Shown piece after piece: positions 26,809-62,411 of a stretch of DNA of 64,000 nt. Origin of the DNA: a virus; the IMG/VR virus record IMGVR_UViG_3300028569_002586, positions 64,001 to 128,000 of that record, one strand, 5' to 3'. The notes under the pieces are model-generated. The model did no database searches. It was not told the origin of the DNA and saw only the letters and a list, made by a program, of their open reading frames with translations. Position 1 is the first letter of the stretch; each line of letters opens with the position of its first letter. The position numbers and the translations under genes were made by a program.

Positions 26809-28216
26809 AAAGTGCTCTTCTTTTTAGGAAGTGCTGATAACCATATTGTAGATTATCAGCAATGTCAATGATTATAAGCTTATCTTTGTCCTTATGCAAC
26901 CGTAAACCTCTTCCGATGGACTGTAATATCTTTATTTTTGCCTTTCCTCCGCCTGCAAAGATAATGTAGTGTAAGTTTTTAATATTAATACCTGTGGAGA
27001 ATATCTTTGAAATGGCTACAACAATGACATCGGAATGCTCCTCCATGAGCTTTCTAACCTCTTCTCTTTCATTAATTTCGACTTCTCCTCTGATGTAGAA
27101 TATTTTCTTGGCAGGGCAAGTATTCTTAAGCAGATTGAAAATGTTTTCACCATGCTCAATGTAGTCAACTAATATAAGTGTGTTCTGTGATGCACCACAG
27201 GCAGCTTTAGAAATAAGGTTGTTTCTAAAATTATTTTTTATTAAAAAGTCAACTTCTGCTCTATATCTATCTGCTGCATTAATTAACTCAGAAGGATATT
27301 GTGGCAGTGTTTTGTAGTTTATCATTAATACAGCAACAGACACATTGCTGACATAACTCTCTAGTCTGAGCTCATAGCTTGTTTTTTCATAGATGATGGG
27401 CCCAATTTTACCAATGATATTCCATTGATCTAGCTGGCCTTCGGGCATAGTGCCTGTCAATCCAAAGCGCAAAGGTGTTTTAATTATTTTAAATAATTTA
27501 TTAATTTCATTTCCTTTGCGAACCTTATGTACCTCATCAACAAACAATACATCTATTTCCGATAACCAAGATGTATCGCTGTTTTTGCTTTGAAGAATCC
27601 CTATATTTGCTACGACAACATTAGCGCTACGATCCAACTCATGGCTGCCAGTCCATTTGCTGATTGTGAATGGCACATTATAAGAAAGAAAATCTGCTGA
27701 TGTTTGTTGTACCAGTCCAAGATCAGGGACAATGAACAAACATTTGAATCTGGGATTAGATAAAAATATGTTGGAAAGAATTGTAGCTGATGTGAGTGTC
27801 TTGCCCCCTGCAGTAGCCAGTACAATAGTACCGCGACCAGTATTTAATGACTTTACAACAATTTCTTCTTGGTAGTCTCTAAGTGGTATGCTTAGCTTGA
27901 ACGGCGTTGTGGTGAAAGCACCTCTGTCCTGAAGATATTTCTTAGCAGGCAGTAATTCTTCAAGTAATTCTGCATCTATTTTTATTTCATCAGGGTACTG
28001 GTTTGTTATAAACAAGCGCTTGATCTCCAGGGCAAGACAGGGATCAAATTTGCCCATGGGTGTTATGGCGTAGGTTCTTTGCGGTATGAATCGACCATAC
28101 CCTCTGATAAATTTAGCTGCCTCGTTCTTTACTGAGAAGTGCTCTCTAATCTCATCAAATCTATCGCTTACAAGAATACCTTGGCGCTTTTTTGCATCAA
28201 GCTTAAGCTCGGTCAT
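26762..28216 (-). CDS. uvsW: SF2 DNA helicase
   Basis: LRDYQ, ATAGGKT, DEVH, GLTGT, STGINI, QSIGRGLR. Confidence 0.92.
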   Translation of the reverse strand: MTELKLDAKKRQGILVSDRFDEIREHFSVKNEAAKFIRGYGRFIPQRTYAITPMGKFDPCLALEIKRLFITNQYPDEIKIDAELLEELLPAKKYLQDRGAFTTTPFKLSIPLRDYQEEIVVKSLNTGRGTIVLATAGGKTLTSATILSNIFLSNPRFKCLFIVPDLGLVQQTSADFLSYNVPFTISKWTGSHELDRSANVVVANIGILQSKNSDTSWLSEIDVLFVDEVHKVRKGNEINKLFKIIKTPLRFGLTGTMPEGQLDQWNIIGKIGPIIYEKTSYELRLESYVSNVSVAVLMINYKTLPQYPSELINAADRYRAEVDFLIKNNFRNNLISKAACGASQNTLILVDYIEHGENIFNLLKNTCPAKKIFYIRGEVEINEREEVRKLMEEHSDVIVVAISKIFSTGINIKNLHYIIFAGGGKAKIKILQSIGRGLRLHKDKDKLIIIDIADNLQYGYQHFLKRRALYEKENITHQIKEIRE

Positions 28217-28605
28217 TAGGTTGTCTCGAGTTTAATAATTTCAAGAATATTTTTGACATCATAAGAGGCGCTGCTAAATGTTTTTTCTGATTTCTCTAAA
28301 AGCTCAATAACTAGTTCAATCTCTTTTATCTTTGCTTCATATTCTTTTAATTCTGTAGCACTTTCTGCTGTCTTCTCTAGAACAGGTATAGATAATTTTA
28401 CAGAAGATGTTTCATTTAATTTTTTAACAATATCGGACTTAAGTTTTTCTTTTTGTTTTTTTAATGTAACTAGTTCAAGCTTATGCCTTATGCATCTGCC
28501 AGTCCACTTGTGCTTAATGCCTGGTAGCTTTAATGCGTAATCCTTGAGGTAAATCTCATCTATCTTTAGATCAGCTTCCAATTCTTTTATATAATTTTCT
28601 AGCAC
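28216..28605 (-). CDS. uvsY: Recombination mediator
   Basis: E..ADLKID...L....LKLP..KHKW, coiled coil, YDVKNI.E..KLE. Start moved to GTG 28605, 6 nt after TTGATT-16-TATTAT. Confidence 0.8.
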   Translation of the reverse strand: MLENYIKELEADLKIDEIYLKDYALKLPGIKHKWTGRCIRHKLELVTLKKQKEKLKSDIVKKLNETSSVKLSIPVLEKTAESATELKEYEAKIKEIELVIELLEKSEKTFSSASYDVKNILEIIKLETT

Positions 28606-28638
28606 ATATAAATAATAGTATAAAGAATACAATAATCA

Positions 28639-28896
28639 ATGATAACGTTTAACCAGTTTTGCAGTGAGATGAATGTGGCAGGAGGTGCCGGCAGTGTATT
28701 TGGACCGGGTACCGCTGGTAGTATAGGTGCATTTGGCAATCAATTTCCTTCACAAAATGATAAAGCGTATAATCCTGGTGATTTGAGAATTGCTACTGTT
28801 TTAGGTGCAAGAAGAGGTGCAAGAAGAGGTACAAAAAGGAAGAAAAAAAATAAACAAAAAATACCTGTACAAAGAAGAGCTTTGCCAGGTCTGTAA
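28639..28896 (+). CDS. 85-aa protein paralogous to the N-arm of the major capsid protein, with a polybasic insert
   Basis: Shares C.E.N.AG, GNQFPSQND, Y.PGD.R and IP..RR..P.L with gp23 residues 58-110; TATAAATA at 28607-28614. Confidence 0.8.
   Translation: MITFNQFCSEMNVAGGAGSVFGPGTAGSIGAFGNQFPSQNDKAYNPGDLRIATVLGARRGARRGTKRKKKNKQKIPVQRRALPGL
28804..28839 (+). repeat. 12-bp tandem repeat GGTGCAAGAAGA x2 plus one degenerate copy (GARR GARR GTKR)
   Basis: Read directly from the sequence. Confidence 0.8.
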
Positions 28897-28914: not shown

Positions 28915-29331
28915 ATGAATACAGGTCACTGGATGCTTGCTGAAGGTGTCAAAATAACAGAACACAGTTTTGGTTTTATTTACGAAATTACTAATACTGT
29001 AACAAATAAAAAATATATTGGTAAAAAGCAGTGCAAGTCCAAGCTTAAGCGCAAACCTTTGAAGGGTAAGGTTAATAAGAGAATAGAGATCAAGGAATCA
29101 GATTGGAGGGAGTACACAAGTTCATCCAATGAACTCAATCAAGACATAGAAAGGATTGGTAAGGATAAATTTGTTTTTAAAATACTCAGAGAGTGTGGAT
29201 CAAAGTGGGAGTTAGCATATTTTGAAATTAGAGAGCAACTAGACAGGAATGTTCTTCTTAAGGAAGATTATTATAATGGCATTATAAATGTAAGAATTGG
29301 CAGACCTCCAAAAAATTTCTTGATTACTTGA
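28915..29331 (+). CDS. GIY-YIG family nuclease-like protein
   Basis: GFIYEITN...KKYIGKK, W..Y.SS, E, YYN; start ATG 28915 is 5 nt after TAAGTA. Confidence 0.8.
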   Translation: MNTGHWMLAEGVKITEHSFGFIYEITNTVTNKKYIGKKQCKSKLKRKPLKGKVNKRIEIKESDWREYTSSSNELNQDIERIGKDKFVFKILRECGSKWELAYFEIREQLDRNVLLKEDYYNGIINVRIGRPPKNFLIT

Positions 29332-29911: not shown

Positions 29912-29922
29912 TAAATAATGAT

Positions 29923-32493: not shown

Positions 32494-33741
32494 ATGAATA
32501 CCTTTGAAGAATATTTTCTCCTTGAGGGGGGTGCAGCAGGCCATATGGCGCATCCTTTTGATCTGTCTTCTGTACGTACTGGTAGAGATCTTGTAAGTTT
32601 TTTTAAGAGAGCTAGTGATAGTATTAAAAAAGATAAGACCAGCGTTAAATTTGATGGGTTAAATATAAGCTTAAAGCTCATACAAGATGGTGACAAGTAT
32701 AGATTTGCACTTGATAGAGGTAGCAACAAGCCAGCAGATATAAAAGGCATTACAGCAGATAATATAGAAGAAAGATTTGATAAGGGGCATGGCATGATTC
32801 CTGTGGGTAAGTTTATATTGAGTGTAATGGATAGTGCTCTTGATACAATACAACCAGAACTCAAGGCACTGGGTCTCTACAATTCAAATAAATTTTTAAA
32901 TACAGAATATATTACAAAGCTGACTAACGTTACAGAATATGATAGAAATATGATTGTATTTCATGGTATTAATGAGTTTTTTAACGAAAAGAGTCCTTTG
33001 AAGAGAACAACAAGAAGAGTATCACGTGAAATACCATATAATAAGAAAGCGTTAAATGAGCTTGTATTGAAATTGAGACCCATCTTTAAACAACACGAAT
33101 TTGAAGTGTTTGGTCCTACAAAAGCAACAAGCACAGGTGACATAGATTATAGCTCTGCACTCAACAGTACCTTTGGTATAGTGTATACAGGTAATGATAT
33201 GCAGACAAAATCTCTCAAGGGATGGTTGGATCAAGCAAAAAATCCAAGTAAGCTCTTTGTTCGTGATTCGAGGAATAAAAAAATACCTGCCATGTCAAAG
33301 TCAAATTATCTTTATGTGCTATCAGGCAAGCCTGTTGCAAATCTTGTGGGTAACAATCCAGATTACCAGAAGGCTGTGGCAGATGGTGCAATATTTTATC
33401 ATGCAACACGTCTGCTGGGCAATGAGCTTCTTAAAACTCTTGGCTCAGAAGCAGGAGAGCTTGCAAAACATGAAGGTATTGTGATAAGAGATTCAAAGGT
33501 TGCTTCAGTGCCAGTGAAAATAACAGGTGAATTTATTGTTAAGGGCATGTCCAGTCAATTTCAAAAATCTGAGAATGAAGAGGGCATGGGTGGTTTAACT
33601 GGTGCAATTAATTACATTAACAACAGAGGATATTCAAATTCTTCAGGTAATCCTGTAGATCCAAATAATTATATGGATAATGTGAATTACATAAACAGAC
33701 CAAGCTACGGCTCACCGCCCAAAGTGGGGAGCAATGTATAA
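32494..33741 (+). CDS. ATP-dependent ligase-like nucleotidyltransferase (DUF6267-like)
   Basis: GHMAHPFD; motif I VKFDG, motif IV HEGIVIRD, motif V-like VKITG. Confidence 0.6.
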   Translation: MNTFEEYFLLEGGAAGHMAHPFDLSSVRTGRDLVSFFKRASDSIKKDKTSVKFDGLNISLKLIQDGDKYRFALDRGSNKPADIKGITADNIEERFDKGHGMIPVGKFILSVMDSALDTIQPELKALGLYNSNKFLNTEYITKLTNVTEYDRNMIVFHGINEFFNEKSPLKRTTRRVSREIPYNKKALNELVLKLRPIFKQHEFEVFGPTKATSTGDIDYSSALNSTFGIVYTGNDMQTKSLKGWLDQAKNPSKLFVRDSRNKKIPAMSKSNYLYVLSGKPVANLVGNNPDYQKAVADGAIFYHATRLLGNELLKTLGSEAGELAKHEGIVIRDSKVASVPVKITGEFIVKGMSSQFQKSENEEGMGGLTGAINYINNRGYSNSSGNPVDPNNYMDNVNYINRPSYGSPPKVGSNV

Positions 33742-39119: not shown

Positions 39120-39166
39120 CTATAATTATTTATTGATTTCTGCTATCTTTATCTTATAATTTGGTC

Positions 39167-55731: not shown

Positions 55732-55779
55732 ATAACATATAGATCTTTTAATATTATAGTGTATCATAAATAATACTAT

Positions 55780-59151: not shown

Positions 59152-59814
59152 ATGGCGCTTCGTCTAATAGTTGAAACCCCTCAAGATAATTCTGACTTCG
59201 AGTATATCTATGAGGAGAAAAATCACAAAGAACTTTCAAAGCTTTTTATCTCCGGACCTTACATGATGTGTGAAACAGTCAATAAGAACAAGCGCATTTA
59301 CTCAAGAGATGACATGGAGAGAGAGGTGGGCCGTTATGTGGGTGAAATGGTTAATACAAAGAGAGCCATGGGTGAACTCAACCACCCTGAGAGTGCTGAT
59401 GTTAATCTGGCCAATGCATGTCACCTTGTTACATCTTTAAAGATGAATGATAATTTTGTTGTTGGCAGATCACAAGTTCTCTCCACACCCTCAGGCAAGA
59501 TTGTTGAATGTCTCATTAAGGATGGTGTCAAGGTTGGAATGTCTTCCCGTGCACTTGGCGAGCTCAAGGAAGAGAATGGTGTTAACAAGGTCAATAACAT
59601 GCGGTTGATTGCAGTTGACTGTGTTGCCGACCCATCGTGTCCAAAAGCTTTTGTTAATGGTATTCTGGAATCTAAGGAATATGTTCTCAAGGACAATGGA
59701 GAGCTTCAGGAATTTTATGATAAATTTGAAAAGTCAATTTCTAAATTACCTAAACATGATGTGGAGAGCTTCCTAAAGGAACAATTCATTAATTTCATAA
59801 GAAAAATCAAATAA
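59152..59814 (+). CDS. Prohead core protease (gp21-like)
   Basis: NKNKRIY, GELNHP, TPSGKI, GMSSRALG, D.VADPS...AFVNGILE. Confidence 0.95.
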   Translation: MALRLIVETPQDNSDFEYIYEEKNHKELSKLFISGPYMMCETVNKNKRIYSRDDMEREVGRYVGEMVNTKRAMGELNHPESADVNLANACHLVTSLKMNDNFVVGRSQVLSTPSGKIVECLIKDGVKVGMSSRALGELKEENGVNKVNNMRLIAVDCVADPSCPKAFVNGILESKEYVLKDNGELQEFYDKFEKSISKLPKHDVESFLKEQFINFIRKIK

Positions 59815-59996: not shown

Positions 59997-60872
59997 ATGA
60001 GCACAATCATAGACGTACTAAAAGAAGCAACAAAAGACATTCTTTCTGAAGAAACATTGAAAGATATTGAGACAGTATTTAACACCTCAGTAAATGAGAA
60101 AGTTGAATTGCATGTAAATAAAGCCTTAACAGAGCAGGATGCAGATTATGCTTCTAAGCTAGAAAAGCTTGTTGAAGCCATTGATAGTGATCATACTGAC
60201 AAGCTCAAGAAAGTCGTTGAAGCAATTGATGCAGATCGTGCAAACAAGCTCAAAGCTGTTGTTGAAAAGTATGAAAACGCTCTCAAGAATGAAGCTAGCA
60301 AGTTCAAAGGAACACTAGTAAATAACATTTCCAAATATCTAGAACTTTATCTAGATGAAAAACTACCTGTTACAGCTGTTAATGAAGCTGTAAAAAACAA
60401 GAAAGCTCAAAATGTTCTTGAAGGTATCAGAAAAACTCTCGCCGTTGACATGGCATTCTCCAAAGATAGCATCAAGGAAGCCGTTGTTGAAGGTAAGAAC
60501 AGACTCGATGAAGCTGCAAAGCAGCTTGAAGCCTCCAATGCGAAAGCAACAGCTCTTGAAAAAGAGCTAACAAAATTAAAGGCAGAACTTACTCTTGAAC
60601 AAAAAGTTCAAGGATTAGATGAAGAAAGAAAAACATACGTAAAAAAGATGTTTTCTGGAAAATCTGACAAGTTCATAGCTGAAAATTTTGACTACGCAGT
60701 GGGGCTTTATGAGAAGTCAGAAGAAGAACAAGTTGATTCCCTAAAAGAGGAAGCAGTAAATGATGCTGTTTCTGCCAAAGTGGATCGTCCTGTTATTGCA
60801 GAGTCTGTAGCCAGGCCAGTTAATGAAGACCCTGCCTTCAATAATTACCTATCTGAATTAGGTAAGTACTAA
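59997..60872 (+). CDS. Prohead scaffolding protein (gp22-like)
   Basis: Acidic coiled coil, I.TVF...V, ..YL..Y; directly before the major capsid gene. Confidence 0.88.
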   Translation: MSTIIDVLKEATKDILSEETLKDIETVFNTSVNEKVELHVNKALTEQDADYASKLEKLVEAIDSDHTDKLKKVVEAIDADRANKLKAVVEKYENALKNEASKFKGTLVNNISKYLELYLDEKLPVTAVNEAVKNKKAQNVLEGIRKTLAVDMAFSKDSIKEAVVEGKNRLDEAAKQLEASNAKATALEKELTKLKAELTLEQKVQGLDEERKTYVKKMFSGKSDKFIAENFDYAVGLYEKSEEEQVDSLKEEAVNDAVSAKVDRPVIAESVARPVNEDPAFNNYLSELGKY

Positions 60873-60941
60873 TTTCTCTGAGGCATTAAGCCTGAACAGA
60901 AACAATAAGGTCGACAATTTACAAAGGAAATACATATTATT

Positions 60942-62411
60942 ATGTCAAAATCTATTCGTCCTTCGCAGTCTTACATCAGTGAAGATCGCGCTAAACTATT
61001 AACAGAGAAGTGGGCTCCAGTATTGGATTACACATCTGCTAATGTTGCAGCAATCGAAGACGACCATACTCGCTTAAACACTGCTATCCTCTTGGAAAAC
61101 CAAGAGAAGTGGTGCATGGAAGCTAACACTGCCGGTCCTGGTTCCACTCTTGGTTCTTGGACAGATGTTGGGAATCAGTTCCCTTCACAAAACGACAGCG
61201 GTTACGCCCCAGGTGATTACCGTCTTCCAAAGATCCTCATTCCGATGATTAGACGTACCTTCCCTGAGTTGATCACTAACGAAATCGTTGGTGTTCAGCC
61301 CATGAGTGGTCCAGTTGGTCTTGCCTTCGCCCTCCGTTATAAATACGAAGGTGCCGCTCTTGGCTCACAGATCAACAGTGGTGACGCAGCTCCTAACGTC
61401 AGTGGTCCCGTTGGTGGTCCTCAGTCCCAGTCTGATGGTGCAGAACTCGGTTATCAGTATCTAGATTCTAGATTCACTGGTACCTCTGCTTCCAATCTTT
61501 CTGGAAATGCAGACTTCTCAATGGTTGCTAGTGATCAGGGTGTTGCTCAGTTGCTTGCCAACTTTGAGCTCACATCCAAGATCCCTCAGATCGTAGTTAG
61601 CTTCGAAAAGACAGCCGTTGAGGCTGGTACTCGTAGGCTCGCTGCCCGCTGGTCCGTTGAACTCGAGCAGGATTTGAAGAACATGAACGGTATTGATATC
61701 GACACTGAGCTCACAAACGCTATGTCTTATGAGCTACAGGCCGAAATCGATCGTGAAATGATCATCAGAATGATCCAGACAGCTCTTAACGGTGGCTTCG
61801 GCCGCGGTTATTCTATCTGGTCTCCTGCTTCAGCAGATGGCCGTTGGTTGGTTGAACGTAACCGTGACTTCTATCAGAGACTCATCATCGAAGCTAATCG
61901 TATTGCCGTTCGTAATCGCCGTGGTAGCGCCAACTTTGTTGTTGCTACTCCTCGCGTTTGCGCAATCTTGGAAATGCTCCCTGAATTTCAGTGGGTACCA
62001 GTCCAGGGTAACGTTAATACCCAGCCCGTCGGAGTCGCTAAGGTTGGTACACTCGCTGGTAGATTCAATGTATATCGTGACACACGTACAGAGGCACAAT
62101 TTGAAGCCGCTGGTGGTGGAAACTACGCCGGAAACGCCGCAGCTCCCGTCACCCGTAATGCTCGTCTTGAGTACGCCCTATTGGGCTACAAGGGACCAGA
62201 GTTTTACGACACTGGTATCATCTATTGCCCATACATCCCTGTCATGGTACAAAGAACAATTGGACCCAATGATTTCGCTCCCCGTGTTGGTCTCTTGACC
62301 CGCTACGGTGTTGTCGATAACATCTTTGGTGCCAACTTGTACTACCACGTTATCATCCTGCAGGGTCTCGGCACTGCGTTCCAGCCTGGATTGCAGTCTG
62401 TTTACTTCTAA
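60942..62411 (+). CDS. Major capsid protein (gp23-like)
   Basis: KWAPVLD, LLENQE, RR.FP.LI...IVGVQPMSGP.GL.FALR, ELEQDLK, EIDRE, YCPYIP, TRYG. Confidence 0.98.
   Translation: MSKSIRPSQSYISEDRAKLLTEKWAPVLDYTSANVAAIEDDHTRLNTAILLENQEKWCMEANTAGPGSTLGSWTDVGNQFPSQNDSGYAPGDYRLPKILIPMIRRTFPELITNEIVGVQPMSGPVGLAFALRYKYEGAALGSQINSGDAAPNVSGPVGGPQSQSDGAELGYQYLDSRFTGTSASNLSGNADFSMVASDQGVAQLLANFELTSKIPQIVVSFEKTAVEAGTRRLAARWSVELEQDLKNMNGIDIDTELTNAMSYELQAEIDREMIIRMIQTALNGGFGRGYSIWSPASADGRWLVERNRDFYQRLIIEANRIAVRNRRGSANFVVATPRVCAILEMLPEFQWVPVQGNVNTQPVGVAKVGTLAGRFNVYRDTRTEAQFEAAGGGNYAGNAAAPVTRNARLEYALLGYKGPEFYDTGIIYCPYIPVMVQRTIGPNDFAPRVGLLTRYGVVDNIFGANLYYHVIILQGLGTAFQPGLQSVYF

Follow-up and report, generated by a model that had tools for sequence, protein, structure and literature searches.

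The DNA analysed here (the window) is a stretch of 64,000 nucleotides, positions 64,001 to 128,000 of IMG/VR record IMGVR_UViG_3300028569_002586, a 157-kb record of a freshwater T4-like phage of which 74% was recovered. Lake and freshwater metagenomes from a number of studies contain near-identical DNA. The portal, protease, scaffold-like and major capsid protein (MCP) genes stand in T4 order, and the MCP has thousands of close relatives among metagenomes, with only ∼33% identity to the MCPs of T4-like cyanophages. The ORF that concerns us, the mini, had been described in an initial annotation as an 85-aa protein that copies the N-arm of the MCP and carries a polybasic insert, and the ORF reads as given there. 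Its parts and the relevant head genes are listed in Table 1. The C-terminal end of the mini coincides with the point where the MCP runs on into its body, and the mature mini carries a net charge of +13. A 12-nt unit is present three times in the insert, at 28803-28838; strains 93-95% identical to the window (P0003 and P0004) have one unit fewer, and the insert grows and shrinks by this unit.

Table 1. Features of the mini locus and of the head genes in the window
Feature	Coordinates	Strand	Basis or remark
uvsY-like gene	28216..28608	-	PHROG 231, E = 5e-10; divergent, ∼30 nt from the mini
Late-promoter-like box TATAAATAAT	28607..28616	+	30 nt upstream of the mini ATG
Mini gene (P0002), 85 codons plus stop	28639..28896	+	Short ORF kept at ∼40 loci; dN/dS ∼0.2
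Mini leader, residues 1-10, capsid-targeting-sequence type, Glu10 at its end	28639..28668	+	Pattern as in T4 IPII/IPIII
Mini copy of MCP N-fist and start of N-arm, residues 11-55	28669..28803	+	Aligns with MCP 61-99
Mini polybasic insert, residues 56-74	28804..28860	+	Every family member has such an insert
Mini copy of N-arm motif, residues 75-85	28861..28893	+	Aligns with MCP 100-110
SegE-like GIY-YIG gene, directly downstream of the mini	28915-29331	+	Pfam E = 1.7e-30; syntenic in every relative examined
Prohead maturation protease, gp21 type	59152..59814	+	PHROG 207, E = 2e-57
Candidate scaffold protein, acidic, net -12	59997..60872	+	PHROG 237, weak; 13 [LI]-x-Glu sites
MCP gene	60942-62411	+	Pfam Gp23, E = 3e-88
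MCP segment copied by the mini, residues 56-110	61107..61271	+	Corresponds to T4 gp23 57-106

The motif TATAAATA, which the initial annotation had placed ahead of the ORF, lies at 28607-28614. Of 29 distinct relatives, 28 have the core TAAATA[AT][TA] at a distance of 21 or 29-31 nt ahead of the mini ATG (0.02 expected per interval searched); around the mini gene, neither a sigma-70 promoter nor a terminator signal rose above chance. By analogy with the late promoters of T4 and cyanophages, the mini is probably expressed late.

BLASTP aligns mini residues ∼5-85 with MCP residues ∼55-110 (E = 4e-12, 31 identities) across one large gap, the 19 residues of the K/R insert. At the level of families, the mini profile matches the MCP profile with a probability of 99.5% (E = 4.5e-23). 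The insert sits exactly between L55 and I75 of the mini, equivalent to MCP L99|I100, just where it had first been placed. Similarity stops at MCP residue 110, and the mini has no Pfam match to the HK97-fold body (P and A domains) of Gp23 (PF07068). The nine identical residues encoded by differing codons that had drawn attention to the ORF were found again (mini 33-41, nt 28735-28761; MCP 77-85, nt 61170-61196); five of the nine codons differ, all at synonymous third positions. In nine same-genome pairs of mini and MCP, codons are identical at 33% of identical residues, compared with 35% in cross-genome pairs. Gene conversion between the two genes is thus rejected, codon identity being no higher within than across genomes. 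Because synonymous sites between mini and MCP are also randomised, the mini is an old copy and not the product of recent duplication or conversion. By sequence, it is a true mimic of the MCP N-terminus, homologous to it and with the same junction.

A scan of IMG/VR viral contigs for the small ORF, proposed in the initial annotation, located ∼40 lake-phage loci at which a short ORF (76-97 codons) occupies the corresponding position and diverges from uvsY; the remaining matches were MCP N-termini. Twenty-one homologues are present in the protein collection, and the family profile recovered 184 clusters, mostly of 60-100 aa, from 1.84 billion representatives. The wider family shares, as its constant elements, a Glu-terminated leader, a stretch rich in Gly, a motif of the Y-A-P-G-D-A-R type, the polybasic tract and a last R-R motif. 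The basic insert, present in all members, varies in sequence and in length (7-25 residues). Pairwise comparisons give a dN/dS of 0.18 for the copied core and of 0.21 overall, and one-third of the pairs are synonymously saturated. These values lie well away from the dN/dS near 1 that had been named as telling against the proposal and, with the randomised synonymous sites, uphold its view that selection acts on the protein and that no recent DNA duplication is involved. The mini and its relatives belong to no family in Pfam or PHROGs. Megablast with the mini locus gave no match, nor did tblastn with the mini and two divergent members against 50,697 cultured-phage records with the low-complexity filter on.

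The gene order around the mini is fixed. In all relatives sbcD, a ∼200-aa gene, a uvsW-type helicase gene and uvsY lie on one strand, and the mini, the SegE-like gene and further late genes begin on the opposite strand ∼30 nt from uvsY. Retention of its synteny in every relative examined makes the SegE-like gene unlike a mobile homing endonuclease. Both mini and MCP are present on the 11 contigs that reach both positions, and the pairing of minis with their own MCPs rests on these 11 pairs; contigs G018-G022, which carry divergent minis, had no Gp23 gene and added no pair. On G001 the mini is present and the MCP position is probably beyond the contig end. Contigs G016 and G017, with a more distant MCP (48% identity), gave an MCP match and no mini match, and there the mini may be absent, too divergent or beyond the contig. 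The homologues and clusters, the dN/dS values and the joint occurrence with the MCP together identify the mini as a real, selected gene.

In the T4 capsid-targeting sequence (CTS), targeting depends on residues 4 and 7, and cleavage on residues 8 and 10 (PMC9026906). The mini leader of the window has Phe4, Phe7, Cys8 and Glu10, the T4 internal proteins IPII and IPIII have Tyr4, Phe7, Ile8 and Glu10, and the leader has the form of a CTS propeptide (10-19 residues, determinants at 4, 7, 8 and Glu10). The proposed likeness to the leaders of T4 internal proteins therefore stands, given the aromatic residues at 4 and 7 and Glu10, and the Glu junction said to be common to the mini leader and the MCP is borne out by alignment. 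Relatives use three interchangeable leader types, each with hydrophobic-x-Glu at its end before the NVAGG junction common with the MCP, and similar leaders stand on six or seven further late proteins encoded in the window. The predicted cleavage context is L-x-E in relatives, C-S-E in the window mini and C-M-E in its own MCP. The gp21-type protease encoded upstream of the MCP gene is the presumed processing enzyme. Mature minis (n = 38) contain no [LI]-x-Glu site and 1.1% Glu, with net charges of +4 to +13, a composition with which they would survive such a protease.

A segment search of the T4 genome with gp23 57-93 returns a single other match, gp61.1 (NP_049649, 54 aa, annotated as hypothetical), whose alignment (E = 1e-9) spans the known cleavage site and the N-fist. 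Both gp61.1 and the window mini are small ORFs that join a targeting-type leader ending in Glu to a copy of their own MCP's cleavage junction and N-fist. The two junctions are nearly identical, and in gp61.1 a short Lys run follows at the same N-arm position. Unlike the mini, gp61.1 stops its copy after the N-fist, has an acidic tail and lacks the second N-arm motif beyond the basic run. Its gene adjoins the primase gene among early genes, whereas the mini lies beside uvsY behind a late-type box; a primase-gene neighbourhood was found neither in the window nor in any relative. The mini-family profile aligns with gp61.1 over 18 columns, in the leader and junction only (hhalign E = 1.8e-4, probability 49%).

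The cultured cyanophage P-HM1, which infects Prochlorococcus, provides a third case. Its protein PHM1_169 (ADO98793, 234 aa, hypothetical; T4-like gene cluster 538) is 72% identical to its own MCP over 29 residues (E = 1e-13). Like the mini, it contains the N-fist and the start of the N-arm of its own MCP, with which it begins, and a K/R-rich tract directly after them. It differs from the mini in having no clear cleavable leader and a C-terminal extension of ∼190 residues rich in Lys and Glu, and the two proteins show no sequence similarity, as each copies a different MCP. The gene (GU071101.1 146124-146828; L168:1125-1829) lies two genes downstream of a virion structural protein gene.

The N-fists of T4, P-HM1 and the window clade are unalike, with the basic run at the same N-arm position in all three mimics, so each mimic tracks its own MCP. 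Co-variation of mimic and own MCP is strong at this deep scale, judged by sequence. At the fine scale it is weak. Same-genome pairs are slightly more alike than cross-genome pairs (17.8 versus 17.3 of 22 residues, permutation p = 0.02, relatedness uncontrolled), the signal is confined to a G/N site common to two of ten pairs, and in lineage L095 the mini lacks the nine-residue block that its own MCP still has. The expectation that the mini would co-vary with the gp23 of its own genome thus holds between distant lineages and is only weakly borne out within the clade. The further claim that no equivalent had been described is correct for the literature, in which our search found neither a published description of the mimic family nor its motifs in print. 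It does not hold for genomes, since T4 61.1 and PHM1_169, for which the annotation says no more than hypothetical, are equivalents. As far as we have searched, this kind of capsid mimic, common to the window clade, T4 and a cyanophage, is undescribed.

The copied segment corresponds to the N-fist/N-arm of mature T4 gp23* (residues 66-105; PDB 5VF3, 7VS5); the mini differs in being free-standing, with its own leader, a polybasic insert and no HK97-fold body attached. In the unexpanded T4 head, gp23 66-105 is disordered and internal and probably touches the core; after expansion it is externalised as the N-arm/N-fist and binds four neighbouring subunits (PMC9546572, PMC9958956). At the T4 portal, the five portal-facing N-fists are disordered and Met98 of the N-arm contacts the portal (PMC7136217). 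By alignment, the mini insert falls between T4 gp23 residues 95 and 96.

Among known head proteins, T4 IPI, IPII, IPIII and Alt resemble the mini in the pattern of their leader, which is 10-19 residues long, and in having a Glu cleavage site, and the internal proteins (IPs) also yield small basic mature products. In contrast to the mini, the T4 IPs have no similarity to capsid proteins, are folded and are poorly conserved between phages, whereas the mini is a capsid mimic, predicted to be disordered, that all of its clade retains in a conserved form and at a fixed position. T4 gp67 (80 aa) is another small, protease-processed component of the prohead core; unlike the mini it is acidic and encoded between the portal and protease genes, and BLASTP gave no alignment between the two at E = 100 or better.

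The mimic module also occurs in larger proteins. In several clusters it precedes other domains, including DUF5661. One family of cargo domains is found in two layouts, either directly behind a bare targeting-type leader or behind leader plus module. The structural model of such a fusion gives a pLDDT of 84-93 for the domain and below 50, i.e. disorder, for the module. The domain model matches only proteins of the ADP-ribosyltransferase (ART) fold, with Tpt1/KptA first (E = 6e-4), then DUF952 and ART toxins. Y-R-G and S-Y-V-S motifs are invariant among members of this family (L132:500-1096, L153:1483-2076, P0394-P0413). With their ART-fold cargo on a leader, the fusions resemble T4 Alt, an ADP-ribosyltransferase that has a leader and is packaged into the head (PMC9026906). 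The ART-fold proteins that stand behind T4-CTS-like leaders in marine and freshwater phages are thus candidate Alt-like, head-packaged enzymes, and by the same analogy the mimic module would ride on proteins loaded into heads. The cargo domains of L124, L132, L153 and others drew no Pfam match; for the L124 cargo, a language-model look-alike alone hints at ParB/Srx. A hydrophobic-x-Glu motif that follows the module in fusions may be a second protease site but could equally be the homologue of F-P-E in the MCP, and we do not count it as evidence. A further variant, a 198-aa mini form (L047:3001-3594 and P0027), has a C-terminal extension with repeat-like G-x-x-x-Y-W-x-N-G motifs and no Pfam match; in L047 its leader resembles those of two small neighbouring genes, one of which is itself polybasic.

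The best explanation of these observations, to which we give a probability of roughly one half, is that the mini, a mimic of the MCP N-terminus, is directed to the prohead and trimmed there by the protease, and that the polycationic product remains in the head. We infer its targeting, cleavage, head location and binding partner as follows. During prohead building, the CTS-type leader and the MCP-like segment would take the mini to the interface between scaffolding core and shell. The gp21-type protease would cut it after Glu10, at a junction built like the MCP maturation site. The ∼75-residue product, disordered, nearly Glu-free and highly basic, would resist the protease that shreds the acidic scaffold, and it would remain inside, binding DNA and/or the surface recognised by the MCP N-fist/N-arm. 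This explanation draws support from the leader pattern, the MCP-shared junction, the protease gene and the contrast between site-free minis and a scaffold with 13 sites, as well as from the module on leader-bearing cargo, the same design in T4 and P-HM1 and the conserved late-type box.

Several observations argue against the packaged-mimic explanation. At P3, the presumed site of the window mini has Cys rather than Leu or Ile, although the MCP of the same phage has Cys there too. A ten-residue leader suffices for packaging in T4, so that targeting leaves the conservation of the MCP copy unexplained. In mature T4 the N-fist is on the outer surface (PMC9546572), and a peptide trapped inside could therefore not use that site; a disordered 8-kDa peptide might moreover escape through capsomer pores. 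The loss of the nine-residue block in L095, whose MCP kept it, the lack of an obvious cleavable leader in the P-HM1 mimic and the position of T4 61.1 among early genes also count against it.

Alternatively, the mimic could regulate assembly or maturation, in competition with the N-terminus of the MCP for either the scaffold core or the protease. It would then tune shell-core contacts, acting on head size or shape or keeping polyheads from forming, or it would set when cleavage and expansion occur, with the basic tract gripping the acidic scaffold. The T4 capsid-length mutations A66D, A94V and G97S fall within gp23 66-105, the copied segment, and two of them flank the insert position (PMC9546572). 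Loss of IPIII in T4 leads to polyheads, and the IPs co-purify with gp22 (PMC9026906). The acidity of the scaffold candidate fits a regulatory role as well, as does a gene that is universal and syntenic in its clade, unlike arms-race cargo. The case nevertheless proceeds by analogy, and the length and sequence of the insert vary freely, down to repeat number at the strain level, which is unexpected for a precise regulator. We consider this role rather unlikely.

That the processed peptide is a surrogate arm bound to the shell, as the initial annotation proposed, is an unlikely reading. It would fill N-fist/N-arm sites that lack a neighbour's arm, for instance at the portal or the five-fold vertices, and turn its basic loop towards the DNA. 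The residues that never vary in the MCP arm are exactly those retained by the mimic, which in three lineages follows its own MCP. The T4 portal, with its five disordered N-fists and its contact to Met98, a residue adjoining the insert position, would offer such a site (PMC7136217). Only one Gp23-family gene, and no gp24-type vertex paralogue, was found in the recovered 74% of the 157-kb record. T4, however, has both gp24 and 61.1, and its ordered N-fist is external, a misfit with a DNA-facing loop or an internal origin. Fusion of the module to large cargo domains is likewise a poor fit with a lattice site. A complex prediction for two MCP bodies (residues 111-489) and the mature mini, made without controls, scored 0.02 against a mark of 0.32; it gives this reading no structural support and does not speak against it.

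It is very unlikely that the mini is an anti-defence decoy, a free MCP N-terminus that soaks up or mis-triggers a host capsid sensor of the Gol/Lit/EF-Tu or another type, or that it binds EF-Tu or the chaperonin as nascent MCP does. Tracking of the own MCP would suit a decoy. In T4, Gol maps to the first quarter of gp23, to the stretch of the protein that is conserved most strongly (PMC3014915, which gives its extent without coordinates). The mini, however, ends at the equivalent of MCP 110, before that stretch, which it lacks. A faithful mimic, moreover, would tend to trigger a sensor rather than block it, and the leader, junction and late-type promoter indicate the prohead, not the cytoplasm. 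A decaying, functionless remnant of a partial capsid-gene duplication, which would account for coverage of only the 5′ part of gene 23, is refuted by a frame kept intact in fixed synteny at ∼40 loci, dN/dS of ∼0.2 across saturated synonymous divergence and a family of 184 clusters.

T4 head assembly is among the best-studied pathways, and we know of no role in it for a free copy of the capsid protein N-terminus. Occurrence of the design in three lineages with unalike N-fists, and its conservation under selection in the window clade, point to a function tied to a partner of the capsid N-terminus, which could be the scaffold core, the neighbouring subunits, the protease or the portal. A bolder reading, which we offer tentatively and regard as rather improbable, is that free N-fist/N-arm copies with a basic tract belong to T4-like head assembly since ancient times and have gone unnoticed, from T4 61.1 to cyanophages and lake phages, and that they act on the capsid lattice itself by filling arm-docking sites without a neighbour or by gating shell-core release or expansion. 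If true, it would explain why each mimic needs to track its own phage's capsid protein. T4 61.1 makes the question directly testable in T4, and PHM1_169 gives a handle in a cultured phage. On cargo, the cassette of leader, mimic and polybasic tract may also serve as a natural tag by which proteins are loaded into phage heads.

Three further features of the late genes were observed. About a dozen window genes have the box NATAAATAAT exactly 11 nt ahead of their ATG or GTG, with examples at 29912, 31561, 36397, 55767, 57574 and 59141 on the plus strand and at 39132 on the minus strand (the spacing is 13 nt at 55767 and 39132). A distance of 11 nt leaves no room for a Shine-Dalgarno site, and with T4-like late-promoter spacing these transcripts would begin at the start codon, as leaderless late mRNAs. 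Upstream of gene 23 in nearly all relatives lies the motif GGTCGACA, 25-32 nt from the MCP start (L038-L082 and others; ∼60905-60915 in the window) and followed by a GGAG/AGGA-like site. Other late genes look leaderless, and GGTCGACA may be a capsid-gene-specific RNA-processing or regulatory site. Finally, a group of proteins without a family match has a conserved G-G-A-A-G-H-M-x-H-P motif behind CTS-like leaders or internal Glu sites; it is encoded at 32494-33741 (+) in the window, from 5822 in L015 and from 4712 in L004.
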